A DNA stretch of 41,868 bases from a virus. Lineage: Duplodnaviria > Caudoviricetes. A program made the position numbers and the translations under genes. The notes beneath the pieces are model-generated. The model saw only the letters and a program-made list of their open reading frames with translations, did not search any database and was not told the origin of the DNA. Below, piece by piece: positions 542 through 38,353 of this stretch (positions within the stretch are counted from its first letter, which is position 1; each line of letters opens with the position of its first letter). The stretch is taken from positions 1-41,868 of IMG/VR virus record IMGVR_UViG_3300045242_000062. The stretch is one strand, 5' to 3'.

Positions 542-846
542 CCGGACCTGACACCCAGGCACCGGAGCACGGGACGTGCGTCATCTTTTCGGACTCCCCA
601 ACGACTTGGCTTTGCCCACGGCCGGCGGCAACCCACGCCCGGAGATCGGCGCCTGCGACGCAGGGTGTCTCGACTCTGATGCGTCATTTTACCGCAACGC
701 AAGCCAAATTCGTTCGGACAAAACCGGCATTCCCATACCGTTTGGTGATGATGCGCCGCATCAAGCGTTAATCCAGCGTGACAAGCCGCAGAATCCCGCC
801 ATCGTTGCCAAAGTAAACGCGCGTCAAAAAAGTTTTGGAGAGCCAT

Positions 847-1038
847 ATGCCTCGCACACCCCCAACCAGGCGGGGCGTGCCCTACCAGGACGCGATCGAT
901 GCTCTGCACCGGATAAACTTGATGCTTATCAAAATATCAGCCATGCCACGGCTGCCGGGGGCGGCAAGAGCGGAACTACAGGAAGCGATGGTGTTCCTCG
1001 CACTGCTCTTGGCCTCGGACAACGGCCGCAGTCGCTAG
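847..1038 (+). CDS. Hypothetical early protein
   Basis: GGAGAG RBS before ATG 847; 63-aa helical ORF. Confidence 0.55.
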   Translation: MPRTPPTRRGVPYQDAIDALHRINLMLIKISAMPRLPGAARAELQEAMVFLALLLASDNGRSR

Positions 1039-1116
1039 CCGACGCCCCACAACTCATTCCGCCGCCGCGGTTTCCCGTGCCGCTCCCGCCCGGCTACCTG
1101 CCAGGAGTGGTCTAGG

Positions 1117-1308
1117 ATGCGCGCGCAATTACTCCGCGACATGCTCGCCGCCATCGAGGAGCATCGCCACGCCACCGGCGCTGACCGCGACTACTGGCGC
1201 GGCATCGCGCTCGACCAGATCCGCGAGTTCCGCCGCCGCTACCTCCGGCCGGAAAGGCTGGCATTCGAGGCGGCGATCGCACGCAACCAAGTCAGGAGGG
1301 CAGCATGA
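1117..1308 (+). CDS. Hypothetical protein
   Basis: High GC3; ATGA coupling to next gene. Confidence 0.7.
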   Translation: MRAQLLRDMLAAIEEHRHATGADRDYWRGIALDQIREFRRRYLRPERLAFEAAIARNQVRRAA

Positions 1309-1538
1309 TCGATGCCGCGAGGATCGTAGCCGAGCTACGCGCGCAGGAGTTGCTGACCGCACTCCAGGCCGCCGTGAACGGCGACAGCCACTGGCGCCAC
1401 CGTGCGAGCGCGCTGCTGCGCTCGATCGCCGACCTGGAACTGCCCGAGCAGGTGACCGACGCAATGCGCGCGATCGACGCTCGCCAGCGCGCCGCCGAGG
1501 TGATGCAGGATGTCATGTGGAGCGACTGTAGTGGCTGA
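1305..1538 (+). CDS. Hypothetical protein
   Basis: AGGAGG RBS; coupled start. Confidence 0.7.
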   Translation: MIDAARIVAELRAQELLTALQAAVNGDSHWRHRASALLRSIADLELPEQVTDAMRAIDARQRAAEVMQDVMWSDCSG

Positions 1539-29414: not shown

Positions 29415-31607
29415 TTAGGCCGGCTGTCCCGGCCGTGGGATCGGCGTCTGTGCGAGCCGATTGGTCGTCACCATCGTCTGGTGCGTGTTGGCGATCTCGC
29501 CCACGGTCTGGTGCGGGATCTGCGCCGCCTTCGCCGCGGTCAACGCCGCCTGCGCCTGCGTGTTGCGGATGTCAGCGGCCTTCTTGTGCAAATCCACCAG
29601 GTGGTGCGCGAGCGCCATCTCCGACGTCATCTGCTCGGGATCGGACGGCTGCATGCCCTGCACGCCCGGCGGGTTGTCCGGCGCCACATTCGGCTGGCCA
29701 TAGGGCGGCGCACTGAAGTCGGCATGAATGCCGTGCACCTTGGCCGCCGCGTTGACCTTGCGCTCCTGCGCCAACGCGAAGTCGGAGGCGGCCTTAGCTT
29801 GTTTGCTTTGGATGTCAGCTTGTGCATGTTGCTGCGCAAGCTGGCCCGCTTGCTGCTGTACCTGCCCTTGCTGCTGCTGATGAGCCTGCATCCGCTGGAG
29901 CAGTTGTTCTTTGTCTTGCAGCCCAGAGGCAGCGATCAGAACATCCCCAGGAATAAGCCCAGGTTGCATACCAGCTAGTTGCACTAGTGTCGCAAATTGT
30001 TCTTGCTGGAGACTCGGGATGTCGATCCCTTCCTCGATCGTTATGTCCACATCGAGGTCGGTAATGTCGTTCTCTATCCCCACCACCTGCTGCAACCGAG
30101 GATCGTCGGGCTGCAACTGCATGCGCTGCATCATCTGCATCCGCATCTGCTCAGGCATCGCCGCGAGGCGGTCCATCACCCGGATCGGGCGGTTGATGCC
30201 CACCCACGTCGTGCCGTTGAGCTCGTCGGTGAGCCTCACCCACTTGCCGCCGGACCAGTATTCGCGCGCGGCCATCCAGCAGCTTTCGTAGACCCGGCGT
30301 GACCAGTAGCGCAGCGCGTCGGCCAACGGCTCGTTCTGCGCCGCACCGCCCGCCTGCTGGGCCAGGATCGCCCGCCCGCTGAGTTCGCGCGGATCGGTGC
30401 CCGACATCGCCGCGTTCGGCCCCGATAGCTGCATTTCCGCTGTCGCGTGTTGCAGCAACTGGAACTGCCCGGACGCCAGATCCGCGCTCTGCTCGATCTC
30501 GAACTTGAACCCCGGCATCACCTCGATGTAACCGTCCGGCTTGGCCACCTCGCGGCGGGCCTTGTCCACGTCCTGCACCGCGCCCTGCTCGGCCACCACC
30601 TGGCGCACCGACAGCAGGTGCAGCGCCTTGGAGCGCCGCTTGTTGATCTCGTCCTGCAACGAAATGAGCCCACGCACCATGCCGTAGCGCTGGTTCTCGC
30701 GGTTGATATACGCCGACTGCAACAGCAGGCTGCACGCGCTCTTACCCTTACGATCCTTGAACCGACTGCGCTGCGGATTGGCGAGAATGCCGTTCTTCGT
30801 GATCGTCGCCTGCCACCACGTACCGCGCTCGTCCCAATGGCACTGCACGACACGCACGCGGCGCCGCCGGTTGTCGGTCCAGAACGCGGTTTCCGGCCTG
30901 TCGTTATAGTAGAAATCCGTGGACGAGAACGACGCCTCGATCACGTCGTCGCCCTCGGGATACAGGCCCTCGAGTTGGTCGCGGTCCATCCAAATGACCA
31001 AGCCCTTGTATCGGCAGTCGCTGAAATCCATCGAGCGGGAATGCGGATCGTAGAAAATGCGATCCCACGGAACGTGCGTGATCGTGATGTTCGCACCGCC
31101 CTGTCCGTCGTCCTCGAGGCCGAGTTCCGCGCCGCCCGCGCCCTCGATCAGCATGTTCTCGAACACGGCGCTGCGGACCAGCGAGAACTCGTTGTCGTCG
31201 CTGATGAACCGCAGCGCCTGCGTGGCGGCCAGGGCGCGGTCGTCCTCGGCCGGCGTGCGCGCAAACGCCTTGGGATCGGTGCGTGCCTTGCGCTCCATGC
31301 CGCAGAGCAGCGAGACCTTGTCGTGGATCTTGTTGATGACGATGGCGGGCTGGCCGCGCTTCTTCAGTTCGTCCAGTTCGTCCTTGGTCCACTGGACGTG
31401 GTCGAAATACTCGCGGTCGCGCTGTGCCAGGTTGATCTCGTCCTGGCGCGCGAGTTCGGACTCCTCGAACCAGCGCACCAGCCGGCCGTGCAGATCGTCG
31501 AGATCGCGCGGATACTCGTCGGCGCCGCTGGTGAGGTCAGCGACGGCCGGCGGCGTGGACGGGCCACGCGGCTCGTGGATGTGGACGTGTAGCGCGGTGT
31601 CGCTCAT
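29415..31607 (-). CDS. Portal protein (P22-like)
   Basis: DREYFDHVQWT...RGQPAIVINKI, YDPHSRSMDFSDCRY, QDEINKRRSK, SGRAILAQQ, Gln-rich barrel tail. Confidence 0.92.
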   Translation of the reverse strand: MSDTALHVHIHEPRGPSTPPAVADLTSGADEYPRDLDDLHGRLVRWFEESELARQDEINLAQRDREYFDHVQWTKDELDELKKRGQPAIVINKIHDKVSLLCGMERKARTDPKAFARTPAEDDRALAATQALRFISDDNEFSLVRSAVFENMLIEGAGGAELGLEDDGQGGANITITHVPWDRIFYDPHSRSMDFSDCRYKGLVIWMDRDQLEGLYPEGDDVIEASFSSTDFYYNDRPETAFWTDNRRRRVRVVQCHWDERGTWWQATITKNGILANPQRSRFKDRKGKSACSLLLQSAYINRENQRYGMVRGLISLQDEINKRRSKALHLLSVRQVVAEQGAVQDVDKARREVAKPDGYIEVMPGFKFEIEQSADLASGQFQLLQHATAEMQLSGPNAAMSGTDPRELSGRAILAQQAGGAAQNEPLADALRYWSRRVYESCWMAAREYWSGGKWVRLTDELNGTTWVGINRPIRVMDRLAAMPEQMRMQMMQRMQLQPDDPRLQQVVGIENDITDLDVDITIEEGIDIPSLQQEQFATLVQLAGMQPGLIPGDVLIAASGLQDKEQLLQRMQAHQQQQGQVQQQAGQLAQQHAQADIQSKQAKAASDFALAQERKVNAAAKVHGIHADFSAPPYGQPNVAPDNPPGVQGMQPSDPEQMTSEMALAHHLVDLHKKAADIRNTQAQAALTAAKAAQIPHQTVGEIANTHQTMVTTNRLAQTPIPRPGQPA

Positions 31608-32326
31608 TGCTGCGGTTGCTGGGTTGCTGCCGCACCGGCGCCGCCTGCCATCAGGCCGGCAATGCCGTATTTGCGCAGGATTTCGATGGTGGCGTCGTTG
31701 AACACCACATGCGTCCTGTCAGGGAGAGTGATGCCAGGAACGCCGGCCGCCCGCAGCTTTTCCATAGCGCCAGGATCATTCAGCGCCGCCTGATCCTTCG
31801 CGCTGAGGCTGCCGTAGTCGAGGAAGCTAGCCGGATCGGCCTTGATGTTGACCTCGTACATATGACCGGCTGTGGGATCGGCTTTTGAGCGCCCGGCATA
31901 ATCCTGTGCCAATCGCTCATCCTGCGCGAAGTAGTGGCCGGCCTCGTCAGGATGCAAGAAACGCGCATCGAACCGCTCGAAATCTGCCGGGCTGCCGTGG
32001 TACGCGGTGAAGCCCTTGCCACCCGGTGCGTCGCCCACCATGCCGAGCACCATCGCCGGCGCCTCCTGCATGCCACGCGCCACCTCGGCCCGTGCACGAT
32101 CCATGTCCGTGCCAAGGATCGGCTGGCCACTCGATGTCATCGCCTCGATCGGGTTGAACGGGCCTGACGGCACGCCCACGGACTGCGACGCATAGGGCGA
32201 GGTCGTCTCCGTCCCCACCGGGTTGCGCATAACCTGCTGCGCCAGCGGGCCGAGCTGATTGGCCGGCGCGCTGTAGTCCTGCGGCAGCACCGTGGGATCG
32301 AACAAGCGACTGAGCCAGCCGGACAT
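31604..32326 (-). CDS. Protein with ADP-ribosyltransferase-like (ART-PolyVal type) domain
   Basis: AYHGSPADFERFD...GHYFAQDERLAQDYA...GHMYEVNI...HVVFND. Confidence 0.6.
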   Translation of the reverse strand: MSGWLSRLFDPTVLPQDYSAPANQLGPLAQQVMRNPVGTETTSPYASQSVGVPSGPFNPIEAMTSSGQPILGTDMDRARAEVARGMQEAPAMVLGMVGDAPGGKGFTAYHGSPADFERFDARFLHPDEAGHYFAQDERLAQDYAGRSKADPTAGHMYEVNIKADPASFLDYGSLSAKDQAALNDPGAMEKLRAAGVPGITLPDRTHVVFNDATIEILRKYGIAGLMAGGAGAAATQQPQQ

Positions 32327-32573: not shown

Positions 32574-33898
32574 GCGATCCTCCAGTTTGCGACATCGGAC
32601 TGCCGGGCACGCTGGAACGCATGGTCCCAGCTATCGACGGGCGGTGGCTGCTTCTCGTCCGGCTGCCGGGCGCCAGCATGCACACCGAGTGAGAGATAGC
32701 GCATCGAGTCCGCACCATGGCTCGCATGGTCGTGCACCGGCTGTGCCCGCCAAGTTTGCGCCGCCTCGTTCCACTCACGCCGATAATGCCGCAGCGCCCG
32801 AATCCCCAGCGCACATCGCTCTGCATCGAACCAACACAGCGGCAAAATCATGCGCACCGCGTTGATGCCATCCGCCACAGACGCCGCATGCAGCACCCGC
32901 GATGGCATGACGCCCATGCCGTGCAGCGTCTCACGCCGGCTGCGCCCCGAGCCGAGGTCACGCACTTCGGCATCGTGCGGCAGAATGTGCATGTGGTAGC
33001 GATAGCCTCGCTCACGCAGCATGTGGACGTAGTGGTCGAGCGCGGCGCCGCTATCCTCGATGTAGTCGATCAACCGCCACTCGCCAGAGCCGGTGATCTG
33101 CAGGCACCAGATCGCAGTGCTGTCGTCTATGCCGAGATCCCAGGATGTCCACACCGGCATCCGTGGATCATATGGCACCGAACCAATGCGCCCTTCGGTC
33201 TCAGCGATGTTCATCAGCTTGCCGTAATAGGAGCCGCTGTTCGGCGCCTCGAATGAACATTGCAGCTCTTGAGCAAATTCCTCCTCGGTCATCTCGCGAC
33301 GTAGCGTTTCGATCGCCTCGTCGGGCAGCGCGTGCGTCTTGGTGTGATCAAGGAGATACGAGGAATAACCTGGCGTCGTCTTGGCGCGGTCATATGCCGC
33401 CTGCAGAATGCCGCGGCCCTTTGGCGTACCTGATCGCACGAGCGTGCCGCCGCGATCGGCAAGCATCGGCTCAATGACCAGCGCAACCAACTGCGGTGGC
33501 ATATCATCAAACTCGTCGGCGATCACCTCGTCCGCATATCCACCGCGCCAAGCATCGGGATTGTCTGCGCCGCCGCATTGATACACGGCGCCGTTGGGAA
33601 ACTTCACGACCAGTTCGCTGCGCATTGCCTCAGCGCCAGGAATGGCATCGGCTGCGCGTGCCACCTGGTCCCAGAGGCCGGTGCGTTTCCACATGACGTT
33701 GTAGGGCAGCAGATGAACGATGCGCGGCAGCGGTTTCTTCTCGGTCAATGCACGCTTGAAGCCGCGCCACATCAACCCGGTGGATTTACCCGCACGACGA
33801 TGCACGACAGCGACGATACGCCGCGCATTGTCTGCGATCAGTGGGCGTTGCCACTCACGCGGGGCGAACGGCAGGGTGATTTGCCGCCGGGTTGGCAT
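32570..33898 (-). CDS. terL: Terminase large subunit
   Basis: VHRRAGKS (Walker A), VIADEFDD (Walker B), SGTPKG, SWDLGIDDSTAIW, HDHASHGADSMRY. Confidence 0.95.
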   Translation of the reverse strand: MPTRRQITLPFAPREWQRPLIADNARRIVAVVHRRAGKSTGLMWRGFKRALTEKKPLPRIVHLLPYNVMWKRTGLWDQVARAADAIPGAEAMRSELVVKFPNGAVYQCGGADNPDAWRGGYADEVIADEFDDMPPQLVALVIEPMLADRGGTLVRSGTPKGRGILQAAYDRAKTTPGYSSYLLDHTKTHALPDEAIETLRREMTEEEFAQELQCSFEAPNSGSYYGKLMNIAETEGRIGSVPYDPRMPVWTSWDLGIDDSTAIWCLQITGSGEWRLIDYIEDSGAALDHYVHMLRERGYRYHMHILPHDAEVRDLGSGRSRRETLHGMGVMPSRVLHAASVADGINAVRMILPLCWFDAERCALGIRALRHYRREWNEAAQTWRAQPVHDHASHGADSMRYLSLGVHAGARQPDEKQPPPVDSWDHAFQRARQSDVANWRIA

Positions 33899-35406
33899 CA
33901 ATCGGCTGCCAGGTCGGCGAACAGATCGGCCATGCGGGCGTCCTCTGGGTCATCCGCCGGCGGGAACGCAGTGAACAGCGGCGCGTCAGCCTGGCAGCGC
34001 TGCATGGCCATCTCGGTGTAGCCGGGGTTCAACTCGATGCCGATGGCGTCGCGTTGCAGCCGGTCGGCAACGAGCAGCGTCGTGCCGGCACCGGCGAACG
34101 GGTCGAGGACGGTATCGCCGAGGCGCGTGCCAGCCTTGATGCACCGCTCGGCCAGGGCGGGCGGGAACGTCGCGAAGTGCGCCTCGCTGAACGGCGCGGT
34201 GGCGATCGTCCAGACGTTGCGCATGTTGCGGTTCCCACCAAAATCCCGCATGCCGACCGGCACCGTGCGGCGGTCGTTAACTGCATCACCGCCAGAAGTG
34301 CCGCTGAATGCGTATCCATAGCGAGACGCGGAACCAACAGGATCAGCGCTTGGCTCCCTTACCGCATCCGCGTCGTAGAAATATTTAGCCGCCTTCGTCA
34401 GCAGGAACACGTGCTCATGCGCCGACGTGGGGCGGTCGGTTACGCTCTCGGGCATCGGGTTGGGCTTGTGCCAGATGATGTCGCTGCGGAGCCACCAGCC
34501 ATCGGCCTGCAACGCCAGGGCGAGGCGGGCGGGCATCATCAGCAGGTCTTTGGGTTTGGGTTCGTGGCTGAACTTGGGTATATTCAGCCATGAGCTACGA
34601 ACGCACTCCCGAGCATCGCGCGAAGATGAGCGCAGCACTGAAAGGCAAGCCCCACAGTTGGCACAGTGCGAGCACGACGCCGAAGGTGGCCAAGAAGATA
34701 CAGGACTGGTGGACGCCTGAGCGACGAGAGGCGCGACGCCTTGAGTCGATGGCCCGTCATCCAGACGCGCGCTATCACGGCCTGTCGTCCAAGCGTGCGG
34801 CAGCGATTGTGAAGGCAGCAGGGAAATGCTCCCAGTGTGGATCAACAAAGCGTCTCGGCATCCATCACAAAGATCGCGACAAGCATAATCAGGCGCCAGA
34901 GAACCACGAGGTGCTGTGTCACCGCTGTCACATGCAAGAACACGCACGGGCAAAGGAGACTGGGTGGGACATTTACCACCGGAAGCGTAAGAGTCTCCGA
35001 TGTTAACAAAGCAGGTGCCGTCGTCACGCAGCACGCGGCGCACGTCGCGGAACACCGCGACCATCGCCGTGAGGTAGTCGCAGGGCGTGGCCTCTAGGCC
35101 TATCTGGCTGTCGATGCGCCTGGCGCCGCACTTGCCGCAGGTGTCGCGGAACTGGATCGCTGGAACGGCACTTCCTGCACCAGTACCCGTGCCGTACATA
35201 GCCGCACGTTCAGCCAACCTATTAGCAGTCACGTCGTTACGCGCCATGCCCTTGACGTGATCGCACGCAACATCCCCGCCATCCCACTGCGCAGTGCCGT
35301 AGTCGCGCAGCCCGTAATACGGCGGCGAGGTCACGACGCATTGCACCGATGCTTCCGGCAGCGTGGCCAGCACGTCGCGGCAGTCACCGGCGAGCAGACG
35401 GATCAT
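33898..35406 (-). CDS. DNA N4-cytosine/N6-adenine methyltransferase (beta class) with a large in-frame insertion
   Basis: VTSPPYY, IIWHKPNPMPES, HFATFPPAL, VLDPFAGAGTT, GIELN. Confidence 0.92.
   Translation of the reverse strand: MIRLLAGDCRDVLATLPEASVQCVVTSPPYYGLRDYGTAQWDGGDVACDHVKGMARNDVTANRLAERAAMYGTGTGAGSAVPAIQFRDTCGKCGARRIDSQIGLEATPCDYLTAMVAVFRDVRRVLRDDGTCFVNIGDSYASGGKCPTQSPLPVRVLACDSGDTAPRGSLAPDYACRDLCDGCRDALLIHTGSISLLPSQSLPHAWTTGRDSARLDDGPSTQGVAPLVAQASTSPVSSWPPSASCSHCANCGACLSVLRSSSRDARECVRSSWLNIPKFSHEPKPKDLLMMPARLALALQADGWWLRSDIIWHKPNPMPESVTDRPTSAHEHVFLLTKAAKYFYDADAVREPSADPVGSASRYGYAFSGTSGGDAVNDRRTVPVGMRDFGGNRNMRNVWTIATAPFSEAHFATFPPALAERCIKAGTRLGDTVLDPFAGAGTTLLVADRLQRDAIGIELNPGYTEMAMQRCQADAPLFTAFPPADDPEDARMADLFADLAAD
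34590..35006 (+). CDS. NUMOD3-HNH homing endonuclease nested antisense in the methyltransferase
   Basis: TPEHRAKMSAALKG (NUMOD3); CSQCG...IHHKDRDKHNQAPENHEVLCHRCHMQEH (HNH). Confidence 0.85.
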   Translation: MSYERTPEHRAKMSAALKGKPHSWHSASTTPKVAKKIQDWWTPERREARRLESMARHPDARYHGLSSKRAAAIVKAAGKCSQCGSTKRLGIHHKDRDKHNQAPENHEVLCHRCHMQEHARAKETGWDIYHRKRKSLRC

Positions 35407-35710: not shown

Positions 35711-35887
35711 ATGAAAGCCTTCCGCATCTTCCGCAACCATTATTTGTGCGACGCCTGCCCGAACGAATGGAGCGACGAAGCGATGGTTGTAGCGCCGGCA
35801 TATTGCCCGTGCTGCGATGCCAAGACCGAGCCTTACGACAGCACCGCGCTGCTTGAGGATGTCACTGTGACCGAGGAGATTGAGTGA
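35711..35887 (+). CDS. 58-aa Zn-ribbon protein
   Basis: YLCDACPNEW...YCPCCD; acidic tail; coupled to next gene. Confidence 0.7.
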   Translation: MKAFRIFRNHYLCDACPNEWSDEAMVVAPAYCPCCDAKTEPYDSTALLEDVTVTEEIE

Positions 35888-36126
35888 TGGACGAGGAGAT
35901 GAAGCGCCATCTGGAAGCTATGGAAGGTCGCCTGATGGCCCGCATCAACGACGTGCTGTTGCGGCTGGTAGATGTGCGAGCCGATGTGCGCAACCTACGC
36001 AGCGAGCACAGCGTAACGCGAGACCTGGTGACAGCTTTGCCGGCAACGGTGCTCGGCGCGATTGAGAAGCCACTACTACAGCGCATCACGGACATTGAGA
36101 CCCGCGTCACGAAACTAGAACCATGA
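35887..36126 (+). CDS. Small coiled-coil protein
   Basis: GAGGAG RBS; heptads; ends RITDIETRVTKLE. Confidence 0.75.
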   Translation: MDEEMKRHLEAMEGRLMARINDVLLRLVDVRADVRNLRSEHSVTRDLVTALPATVLGAIEKPLLQRITDIETRVTKLEP

Positions 36127-36329
36127 CCCCTACTGAGTTCACCGCGGCGCTCGATGTGCTGGGCTGGTCAAAGCGAGAGCTGGTCCGGCACATCAAGTGC
36201 GACACCAACCTGCCACTCGCATGGGAACGCGGTGAGGTTGAGATCCCGCCGCGCATCGAGGCATGGCTTACGAAGCTGGCACAGTTTCATCTGAAACATC
36301 CGCCGCCGACTGACTGGCGCGTGCGGTAG
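36123..36329 (+). CDS. HTH DNA-binding protein
   Basis: MTPTEFTAALDVLGWSKRELVRHI...AWERGEVEIPPRIEAWL. Confidence 0.75.
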   Translation: MTPTEFTAALDVLGWSKRELVRHIKCDTNLPLAWERGEVEIPPRIEAWLTKLAQFHLKHPPPTDWRVR

Positions 36330-36333
36330 GCGA

Positions 36334-36636
36334 TCATTCGTCCACCTCGGCGTCGATCATCAGCAATGCTGGTGATTCCAATGATGGATCGGGCGCATCG
36401 AGCCAGCGGAAGTCGATTGCGAGAGCGCCGCCGTTTTCGCCTGTGAGCTGCATGGGCAGCACTTTGCCGAGCAACGACATGAACGCGACTGGTGTGTCGA
36501 TCGCGCGTGCGGCGAGATATTCGCGTCCACCGGCATCATCGAGGGCGCCAAGGATCATGGCCTTGAGGTCGGCGTTGAGTTTGTTCGGAACGCCGACCTT
36601 GCGACCGGACCCTTCACGCCTTCCACCACGCGGCAT
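36334..36636 (-). CDS. Terminase small subunit (probable)
   Basis: GGRREGSGRKVGVPNK...AFMSLLGKVLP...LTGENGG; upstream of terL. Confidence 0.75.
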   Translation of the reverse strand: MPRGGRREGSGRKVGVPNKLNADLKAMILGALDDAGGREYLAARAIDTPVAFMSLLGKVLPMQLTGENGGALAIDFRWLDAPDPSLESPALLMIDAEVDE

Positions 36637-37608: not shown

Positions 37609-37766
37609 ACGCCGCCGCGGAAGATCAGGAACACGATCACGACCAGCAGCACGAGGCCGAGGCCGCCGCCGTAGCCCCAGCCGGGGCCGTAGGCGCCGTG
37701 GAGGTAGTAACCGCCGCCGCCACCGAACAGCAGCAGCAGCACGACCAGGAGCACGATCAGGCCCAT
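37602..37766 (-). CDS. DUF3309-like small membrane protein
   Basis: MGLIVLLVVLLLLFGGGGYYLHGAYGPGWGYGGGLGLVLLVVIVFLIFRGGVW; GGAGA RBS. Confidence 0.75.
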   Translation of the reverse strand: MGLIVLLVVLLLLFGGGGGYYLHGAYGPGWGYGGGLGLVLLVVIVFLIFRGGVW

Positions 37767-38353
37767 CAGGCGGTCTCCCACATCAGCGATAGTTGGACCG
37801 GGACACCAGTAGGGATCAGGCTGTTAGCCTCCCATTCCCGCCAAAACCGCAGCTTCCTGGCCCACATCTCCGGCGAGGAGTCCGACTTCGATTGATTGCA
37901 TGTCTGGCAACACGGCTGGGTGTTTGTTTCGAGGTAAGGTGCCTCGCGTGGGTTGATGATATCCATCGTCACGTCACTTGGGCCATTCCGCATGCTGCTG
38001 TATGGCCTACGGCAATAAATGCAGGTGTTTTCATAGGCGTGGCGCAAGAGATGCGCGACCCGCTCGATATCCCAGCCATACGCCTCGGTCATTTTCGCCG
38101 CGGTGATTTGATACCGCATGGCATGGTGTTTGATTGTGGAACGGGCCTTGGCAATGAAAGGCTCGACCTTCTTCAACCCGTCGCGTGCTGTCTGTTCACA
38201 GCCGATGCAGGTCGAGTGGGTTTCGCCACCAGCTATAGCTAGTGGCAACCGAGAGCGTCTGACGTGGGCTTTTCTAAACGCCACCTCGCGATCGTATCTG
38301 CCTCGGCATTTGATGCACTTCTGCCGAGCCGGATCGTCGCATACGAACCTCAT
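37766..38353 (-). CDS. Cys-rich HNH-like endonuclease
   Basis: CIKC, CIGC, CIYC...DVTMDIINP...NTQPCCQTCNQSK; lower GC than neighbours. Confidence 0.7.
   Translation of the reverse strand: MRFVCDDPARQKCIKCRGRYDREVAFRKAHVRRSRLPLAIAGGETHSTCIGCEQTARDGLKKVEPFIAKARSTIKHHAMRYQITAAKMTEAYGWDIERVAHLLRHAYENTCIYCRRPYSSMRNGPSDVTMDIINPREAPYLETNTQPCCQTCNQSKSDSSPEMWARKLRFWREWEANSLIPTGVPVQLSLMWETA

Follow-up and report, generated by a model that had tools for sequence, protein, structure and literature searches.

An HNH endonuclease gene that lies antisense within a loop of a DNA methyltransferase (MTase) gene is likely to be a homing cassette that operates without splicing, the host enzyme being translated straight through it. 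The window, i.e. the whole stretch of 41,868 bp analysed, is a complete virus record with direct terminal repeats, and a phage context is given by Pfam and PHROG matches for a P22-like portal, capsid, and terminase. The features of the locus are as follows.

33898-35406, minus strand: ORF of a beta-class N6A/N4C DNA methyltransferase (MTase), 502 aa, without internal stop (PF01555, E = 2e-46)
34590-35006, plus strand: NUMOD3-HNH endonuclease gene, 138 aa (NUMOD3, E = 8.5e-5; PHROG HNH families, best E = 3e-8)
35317-35328, minus strand: catalytic motif IV, SPPY (MTase aa 27-30)
34081-34104, minus strand: SAM-binding motif I, DPFAGAGT (MTase aa 435-442)
34987-35004, minus strand: left flank of the insert, NIGDSY (MTase aa 135-140), overlapped by the 3' end of the HNH gene
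34543-34557, minus strand: right flank of the insert, KPKDL (MTase aa 284-288)
34558-34986, minus strand: insert of 143 codons in the MTase frame, standing in place of the native variable loop
32570-33901, minus strand: terminase large subunit (TerL), its start overlapping the MTase stop by 4 nt

The MTase gene directly precedes the TerL gene. Its frame had been predicted to run unbroken over the antisense HNH gene, and ORF coordinates and translation agree on this point. The same prediction placed the insert between NIGDSY and KPKDL; 143 codons do stand there, but the 3' end of the HNH gene reaches past them and continues antisense to the whole of NIGDSY, its stop falling in the V-N codons beyond. 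The HNH ORF covers all but 32 nt of the insert. The segment is a variable loop as supposed, the native loop measuring 8-100 aa in 77 of 78 relatives and being absent in the remaining one. An assembly artefact was rejected, since the insert is covered by contigs from two public runs with 0 differences, though both possibly represent the source sample; in runs X1 and X3, related alleles carry 165 and 115 other letters at the insert position.

Several other elements were noted in the window. A free-standing second gene of the HNH/endonuclease VII-like type is located at 37766-38353 (minus strand), and an ORF with an ART-PolyVal domain (31604-32326, minus strand; E = 4e-8) lies between the terminase and portal genes. 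Three small plus-strand ORFs at 35711-36329 (58, 80, and 68 aa) are without family matches, and their 3' neighbour, an ORF of 100 aa at 36334-36636, may encode the small terminase, as judged from its position. Within the MTase gene, 35116-35265 (minus strand) encodes an optional, Cys/His-bracketed segment, CDH...CGKCG (aa 48-93), that some relatives lack.

Relatives of the HNH protein numbered 187 among 205 candidates, and none was found in cultured phages of the searched collection. A total of 116 loci were gathered by HNH queries, not by MTase queries, the metagenome part being the best 80 of 161. Eight loci with short or weak matches (L001-L003, L108-L111, and L116) were left out, giving a final set of 108 loci including the window, which form 84 clusters at 90% nucleotide identity.

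The same antisense (MTase) frame was free of stops over the HNH match in all 108 loci (84 distinct). Homologous inserts with stops in the MTase frame, named beforehand as the finding that would speak against the original prediction, were thus not encountered. Under three null models, 179-290 stops were expected in the 84 distinct loci and 0 were observed, while 2.9-9.7 open frames were expected and 84 were observed; the other two antisense frames of these loci contain 163 and 655 stops. A stop in the MTase frame requires an HNH codon ending in TT, TC, or CT and a next codon starting with A, and the stop-making codon was used in 0 of 731 such at-risk pairs, versus 1289 of 3128 pairs in which the next base is not A. 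When the same geometry was applied to MTase coding DNA as a control, the frame was open in 1 of 75 stretches. Chance opening by high GC was rejected on the basis of these stop counts. Taken alone, the window has an open frame that is 3-12% likely by chance, but it is non-random because the HNH family keeps the MTase frame open; and since four-fold sites outside one block are only 0.34-0.43 identical, shared ancestry does not explain the open frames.

In the leader, where nothing is encoded on the HNH strand, the MTase frame has 0 stops versus 72 and 70 in the others among 68 alleles, chosen by an in-frame KxKD, which 81 of the 84 carriers have. Both MTase flanks are within one ORF in 77 of the 84 loci; five of the other seven end at contig edges, and two differ, a stop lying directly before the insert in L045 and the right flank being lost in L025. 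Loop lengths range from 143 to 230 aa, with 47 distinct lengths among the 77 alleles, every one in frame. Comparison of the loci altogether shows that the MTase frame is under selection against stops over the HNH gene, and the insert is therefore likely translated.

The HNH gene itself retains the residues of a nuclease, all of which are invariant in 70 of 70 aligned homologues:

34827-34943, plus strand: HNH/zinc core, C80, C83, H92, H93, N105, C110, C113, H114, and H118

Estimation of dN/dS on each strand, proposed as a check of the original prediction, gave divergent results: about 0.15 for HNH (136 non-independent pairs), which shows purifying selection at the level of codons, and about 1.9 for the MTase frame over the whole insert. 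A PDB search with the HNH profile gave no significant match, and Foldseek of the HNH model gave weak matches, mostly to HNH-fold proteins, none at E of 0.001 or less.

The distribution of the insert is patchy. It was present in none of the nearest MTase relatives (0 of 78 scorable among 80 viral loci collected by the C-half of the window MTase) and, at this site, in none of 120 loci sampled from about 1500 with the GDSY codon pattern. On a FastTree tree of MTase C-halves (195 tips, 149 columns), 34 changes of insert state were counted, as compared with a mean of 56 and a minimum of 48 after shuffling. For 25 of 67 carriers the closest tip on the tree is an allele without the insert, and all 21 tips nearest to the window MTase are insert-free, the insert-free set being enriched for its relatives. 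Identities of HNH and MTase are hardly correlated (rho 0.09), and 42 pairs with HNH identity of at least 75% have MTase C-halves only 49-72% identical. The divergence of the two genes is uncoupled, as expected of a mobile element, and from this pattern we infer homing of the HNH cassette. Vertical inheritance within one MTase subfamily was not supported, in view of the 34 tree changes and the low rho value.

The same uncoupling bears on the view that HNH and MTase make up a domesticated restriction-modification-like or phage-exclusion pair, in which the HNH would cut unmarked DNA of competing phages. Although the two genes are tightly linked in all loci, the HNH is under purifying selection, and many homologues are labelled 'McrA' by one source, such a pair appears very unlikely, because HNH and MTase do not diverge together, the locus L212 carries a LAGLIDADG gene in the same loop, and NUMOD3 is an established module of homing endonucleases.

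Other endonuclease inserts were observed in related MTase genes. In L212, the LAGLIDADG endonuclease gene (826-1500, plus strand) is antisense in the MTase loop after WLNLGSSY, with TTGACA-N17-TATACT and a host frame open over 508 codons. A different antisense HNH family occupies a second MTase site, after RNxRxVW, once more leaving the host frame open; both HNH inserts are present in L049, L102, and L106. The second-site genes are located as follows.

L282, 462-1034: second-site antisense HNH
L049, 298-906: second-site antisense HNH
L102, 1900-2493: second-site antisense HNH
L106, 1942-2448: second-site antisense HNH

In L001 (973-3772), a distant HNH (27%) is at the same site as in the window, but there the MTase is divided between two ORFs; its N-half ends soon after NMGSSY and has a long N-terminal extension that we take to be ParB-like, Pfam giving no match.

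The original prediction reported neither intein ends nor an intron core, and Rfam, Pfam, folding, and junction comparison all agree. Rfam searches were negative for introns in 20 related loci and in the window region, where the one match (E = 2.3) is unrelated; the folding z-score of the insert is 0.14, no better than that of shuffles; no Pfam Hint domain was found in window or loop searches; and the insert junctions vary in sequence and length, without a conserved terminal His-Asn. An RNA intron that escaped recognition and is spliced out would fit the frequent presence of phage HNH genes in group I introns, as described in the examined part of the ShiLan article (PMC11855218). This explanation is nevertheless barely tenable: splicing would lift selection against stops, yet none is made at the at-risk pairs, neither Rfam nor folding gives a sign of an intron, and no more than 32 nt of the window insert are not taken up by the HNH ORF.

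The minus-strand peptide had been described as free of recognizable motifs. This description does not hold, since two conserved cysteine blocks are present in the MTase-frame loop:

34858-34881, minus strand: cysteine block 1 (C176, C180, and C183), antisense to HNH residues 90-97
34603-34674, minus strand: cysteine block 2, C245-x-H-C248-x2-C251-x2-C254-L ... C268, antisense to HNH residues 5-28

Seven cysteines of the loop are kept in the HNH clade of the window, which has 22 members (support 0.83). In block 1, C180 and C183 are each present in 22 of the 22 and C176 in 16; in block 2, C248, C251, and C254 are present in 21, and C245 and C268 in 20. L255 is kept in 21 of 22 via all four CTN codons, the overlapping HNH residue being any of six amino acids, and C248 persists opposite an HNH residue 25 that may be R, S, N, H, or D. 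Four-fold-site identity in this clade is 0.81 over HNH codons 12-30 and 0.36-0.43 elsewhere. A DNA or RNA motif behind the conservation of block 2 is disfavoured, though not excluded for every base, because L255, G252, and five cysteines are kept through synonymous codons. In 22 other carriers, the 50-nt leader, which the HNH ORF does not cover, reads C-x4-C-x-G-[VI]-G-x-C-G-x-C when translated in the MTase frame; the four cysteines are found in 22 of 22, the first touching the HNH start codon, and the Gly and Val/Ile codons vary at third positions. Among the 84 carriers, pattern counts gave 21 with the first motif, 32 with the second, none with both, and 31 with neither.

A profile search with the loop collected 111 proteins, of which 61 have both blocks, separated by 64-69 aa in 41, by 87-95 aa in 19, and by 45 aa in one. 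The shorter spacing in this last protein, P0161, points to an in-frame loss of about 21 aa, by which the HNH would be damaged but the MTase left intact. No known family or structure was found for the loop in the PDB (best E = 0.23), in Pfam (best E = 0.02, single members only), or in an Atlas search (score under 0.8, no significant match), and AlphaFold gave no confident fold for the cysteine blocks. Codon usage across the clade shows that the loop cysteines are selected in the MTase frame, and the cysteine spacing of block 2 marks it as a candidate metal site. The prediction of splicing-free parasitism with a tolerated loop is therefore upheld in part: open frames, a patchy insert, and retained motifs agree with it, but tolerance is not passive, because the cysteine motifs of the loop are selected in the MTase frame.

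Conserved cysteines near the C-terminal end of the insert, together with Ser in place of Asp at the N-terminal flank, might also point to a loop cut from the protein by a cysteine-dependent cleavage or splicing reaction unlike that of inteins. Such excision is highly improbable, however, for the cysteine motifs differ from clade to clade and both are missing from 31 of 84 carriers, and the variable junctions and lengths, the missing terminal His-Asn, and the missing Hint domain do not fit it. A separate observation concerns L043 (497-2996, minus strand), a carrier MTase with a further insertion after RQDIIW that looks intein-like by eye, starting with CLSG and ending with THN before S.

The MTase of carriers retains the marks of an enzyme. 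In the window, Pfam PF01555, the sequence, and the structure model agree on the beta-class fold with motif IV before motif I, and Foldseek of the model matched TTHA0409, CcrM, RsrI, and PvuII (E = 4e-14 to 2e-10), both halves being matched. The AlphaFold model has a core mostly above 90 pLDDT, with values under 50 in the loop at residues 145-182, 190-250, and 252-274. Mean conservation at 93 columns that are conserved among insert-free alleles is 0.933 in carriers versus 0.956, and 82 of the 93 remain conserved. In insert-bearing alleles, S and Y of motif IV are kept in 67 of 67 and 69 of 70, and D, F, and the first G of motif I in 68 of 68; the alignment thus shows that the motifs stay conserved in carrier MTases. 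Of the uncut carrier ORFs, 50 of 56 have both motifs; for insert-free ORFs the figures are 76 of 77 and 64 of 69. One or the other motif is missing in 6 of 56 versus 1 of 77 and 5 of 69 (Fisher p 0.04 and 0.10).

The insert flanks differ between the two kinds of alleles. All 64 unbiased insert-free alleles have the D of GDSY, but 74 of 82 carriers have another residue there, usually S (GSSY); the window keeps D. Because an invariant residue is lost in so many carriers, their enzyme may be altered. All eight carriers that keep D belong to the clade of the window and have G or M three residues after KxKD. In a motif-biased protein set, D was kept in 25 of 61 proteins with block 2 and in 7 of 33 without it. 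The GSSY codon pattern had 19 viral matches, six of them MTases: four with this HNH (three in the existing locus set), one with LAGLIDADG, and one cut off. The GSSY and DxVPIP found in most carriers may represent target immunity or structural compensation.

These properties allow a further explanation to be weighed, namely that the frame is open only for ribosomes to reach the downstream genes (polarity or translational coupling), the carrier MTase being inactive or changed. The 4-nt overlap of the MTase stop with the TerL start in the window, the loss of D from GDSY in most carriers, and slightly more broken ORFs among carriers are in its favour. It is unlikely all the same, considering that motifs IV and I and most of the conserved columns are retained, that specific loop residues are selected where polarity alone needs none, and that a TerL homologue is in the fetched flank of only 2 of 84 carriers, 45 of which had more than 600 nt of downstream DNA. 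A terminase-associated packaging function of the HNH was likewise not supported, this TerL accompanying so few carriers.

The transcription signal predicted for the HNH gene is present in the window exactly as described, in all its parts:

34556-34584, plus strand: candidate HNH promoter TTGGGT-N17-TATATT (TTGGGT, 34556-34561; TATATT, 34579-34584), 5 nt before the ATG

Its -35 element has 3 of 6 consensus bases, and the promoter was absent from the output of a simple scan. It corresponds to a one-base-shorter version of the arrangement of the family, TGGTATAAT followed by 6 nt and ATG. Compared with the form in L014, TATATT plus 5 nt looks like the result of a one-base deletion, compensated in the MTase frame by a second indel, and the promoter of the window itself looks eroded. 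In 63 of 81 carriers, versus 3 of 78 insert-free controls, a -10 box with a score of at least 4 lies no more than 45 nt from the KxKD codons. The distance from this box to the start codon is 6 nt in 30 carriers and 50 nt in 22; the 6-nt layout suggests a leaderless mRNA. An inverted repeat of 11 nt surrounds the -10 box in the window (34562-34593), but its interpretation as an operator was not adopted, most relatives being without it.

The favoured explanation, a homing cassette read through by its host, would operate as follows. The HNH gene would have an antisense promoter of its own, the transcript being leaderless in most cases, and the nuclease would introduce a nick or a cut in insert-free alleles, close to the conserved codons for NxGDSY or KPKDL. 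Repair would then copy the cassette with short flanks, which would account for most carriers having GSSY and DxVPIP. The folded MTase would accommodate a loop of about 140-230 aa, the cysteines of which likely bind metal and make the loop compact, lowering the cost to the enzyme. It is possible, if somewhat short of probable, that the parasite has evolved an antisense metal-binding mini-domain that staples the loop for the host to fold, with at least two origins in this family, marked by different cysteine motifs, and that HNH and LAGLIDADG genes make use of it at two sites of one methylase. If true, this staple makes a third way of sparing a host gene, the insert being folded out instead of spliced out.

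Homing endonucleases are generally taught to spare host genes either by splicing or by an intergenic position. The present loci provide a population-level test of a third route, with 84 divergent copies, near-saturated synonymous sites, and zero stops in the host frame. The region is fully nested and codes in both directions with selection on both strands. Conserved cysteines have been gained in part of the new frame, so that the origin of new protein sequence through antisense overprinting can be followed here in a tractable case. Annotation pipelines restricted to one strand overlook one of the two products, the nuclease or the enzyme.

Searches of the open-access literature found no paper describing a methylase with an antisense insert that does not splice. 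The nearest known system, published in 2025, is the ShiLan domain, a hidden out-of-frame HNH in DNA methylases of mycobacteriophages (PMC11855218; PMC9957025). According to the examined text of PMC11855218, the HNH is on the same strand in frame 3, a read-through loop was proposed without experiments, and the third route was suggested from about ten similar phages; that portion of the text mentions neither antisense, opposite strand, nor promoter. In the ShiLan genome, HNH and gp65 are both on the plus strand, and gp65 matches PF01555. The likeness lies in an HNH ORF nested in another frame of a PF01555 phage methylase gene and, as far as the available text of that article goes, in a stop-free host frame, a patchy distribution, and no intron or intein found. 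The window HNH is different in being antisense with a conserved -10 box, ShiLan being same-strand with no promoter named in the examined text; host subfamily and site also differ, only 51 aa at the N-terminus matching the window MTase, and only the core is shared between the HNH proteins (hhalign probability 18%). Beyond ShiLan, selection for the open frame is quantified here, and host-frame cysteine motifs are selected. In its way of working the element resembles ShiLan, without being one of its members.

Inteins with anti-sense LAGLIDADG or VSR-like endonuclease ORFs have also been described (bioRxiv 10.1101/2025.01.02.630785, in the part consulted). An opposite-strand endonuclease, a read-through host frame, and evidence of continued invasion are common to both systems; by the same portion of that source, the read-through peptide of these inteins is in the splicing domain and presumed to be excised, whereas no splicing domain was found here. 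The free-standing homing endonucleases of T-even phages, i.e. the seg and mob genes, Aeh1 mobE, and T4 mobA (PMC2988022, in the sections examined), resemble the present element in mobility without an intron; for those elements, HNH nickases, cleavage at a distance from the insertion point, and co-conversion of flanks are described there. As far as those sections go, they are intergenic or split the host gene, while the window element leaves its host whole (the distant L001 splits it). The read-through concept is already published for the same-strand ShiLan, and the present insertion is an opposite-strand variant of that kind; new here is the selection on the MTase-frame peptide.
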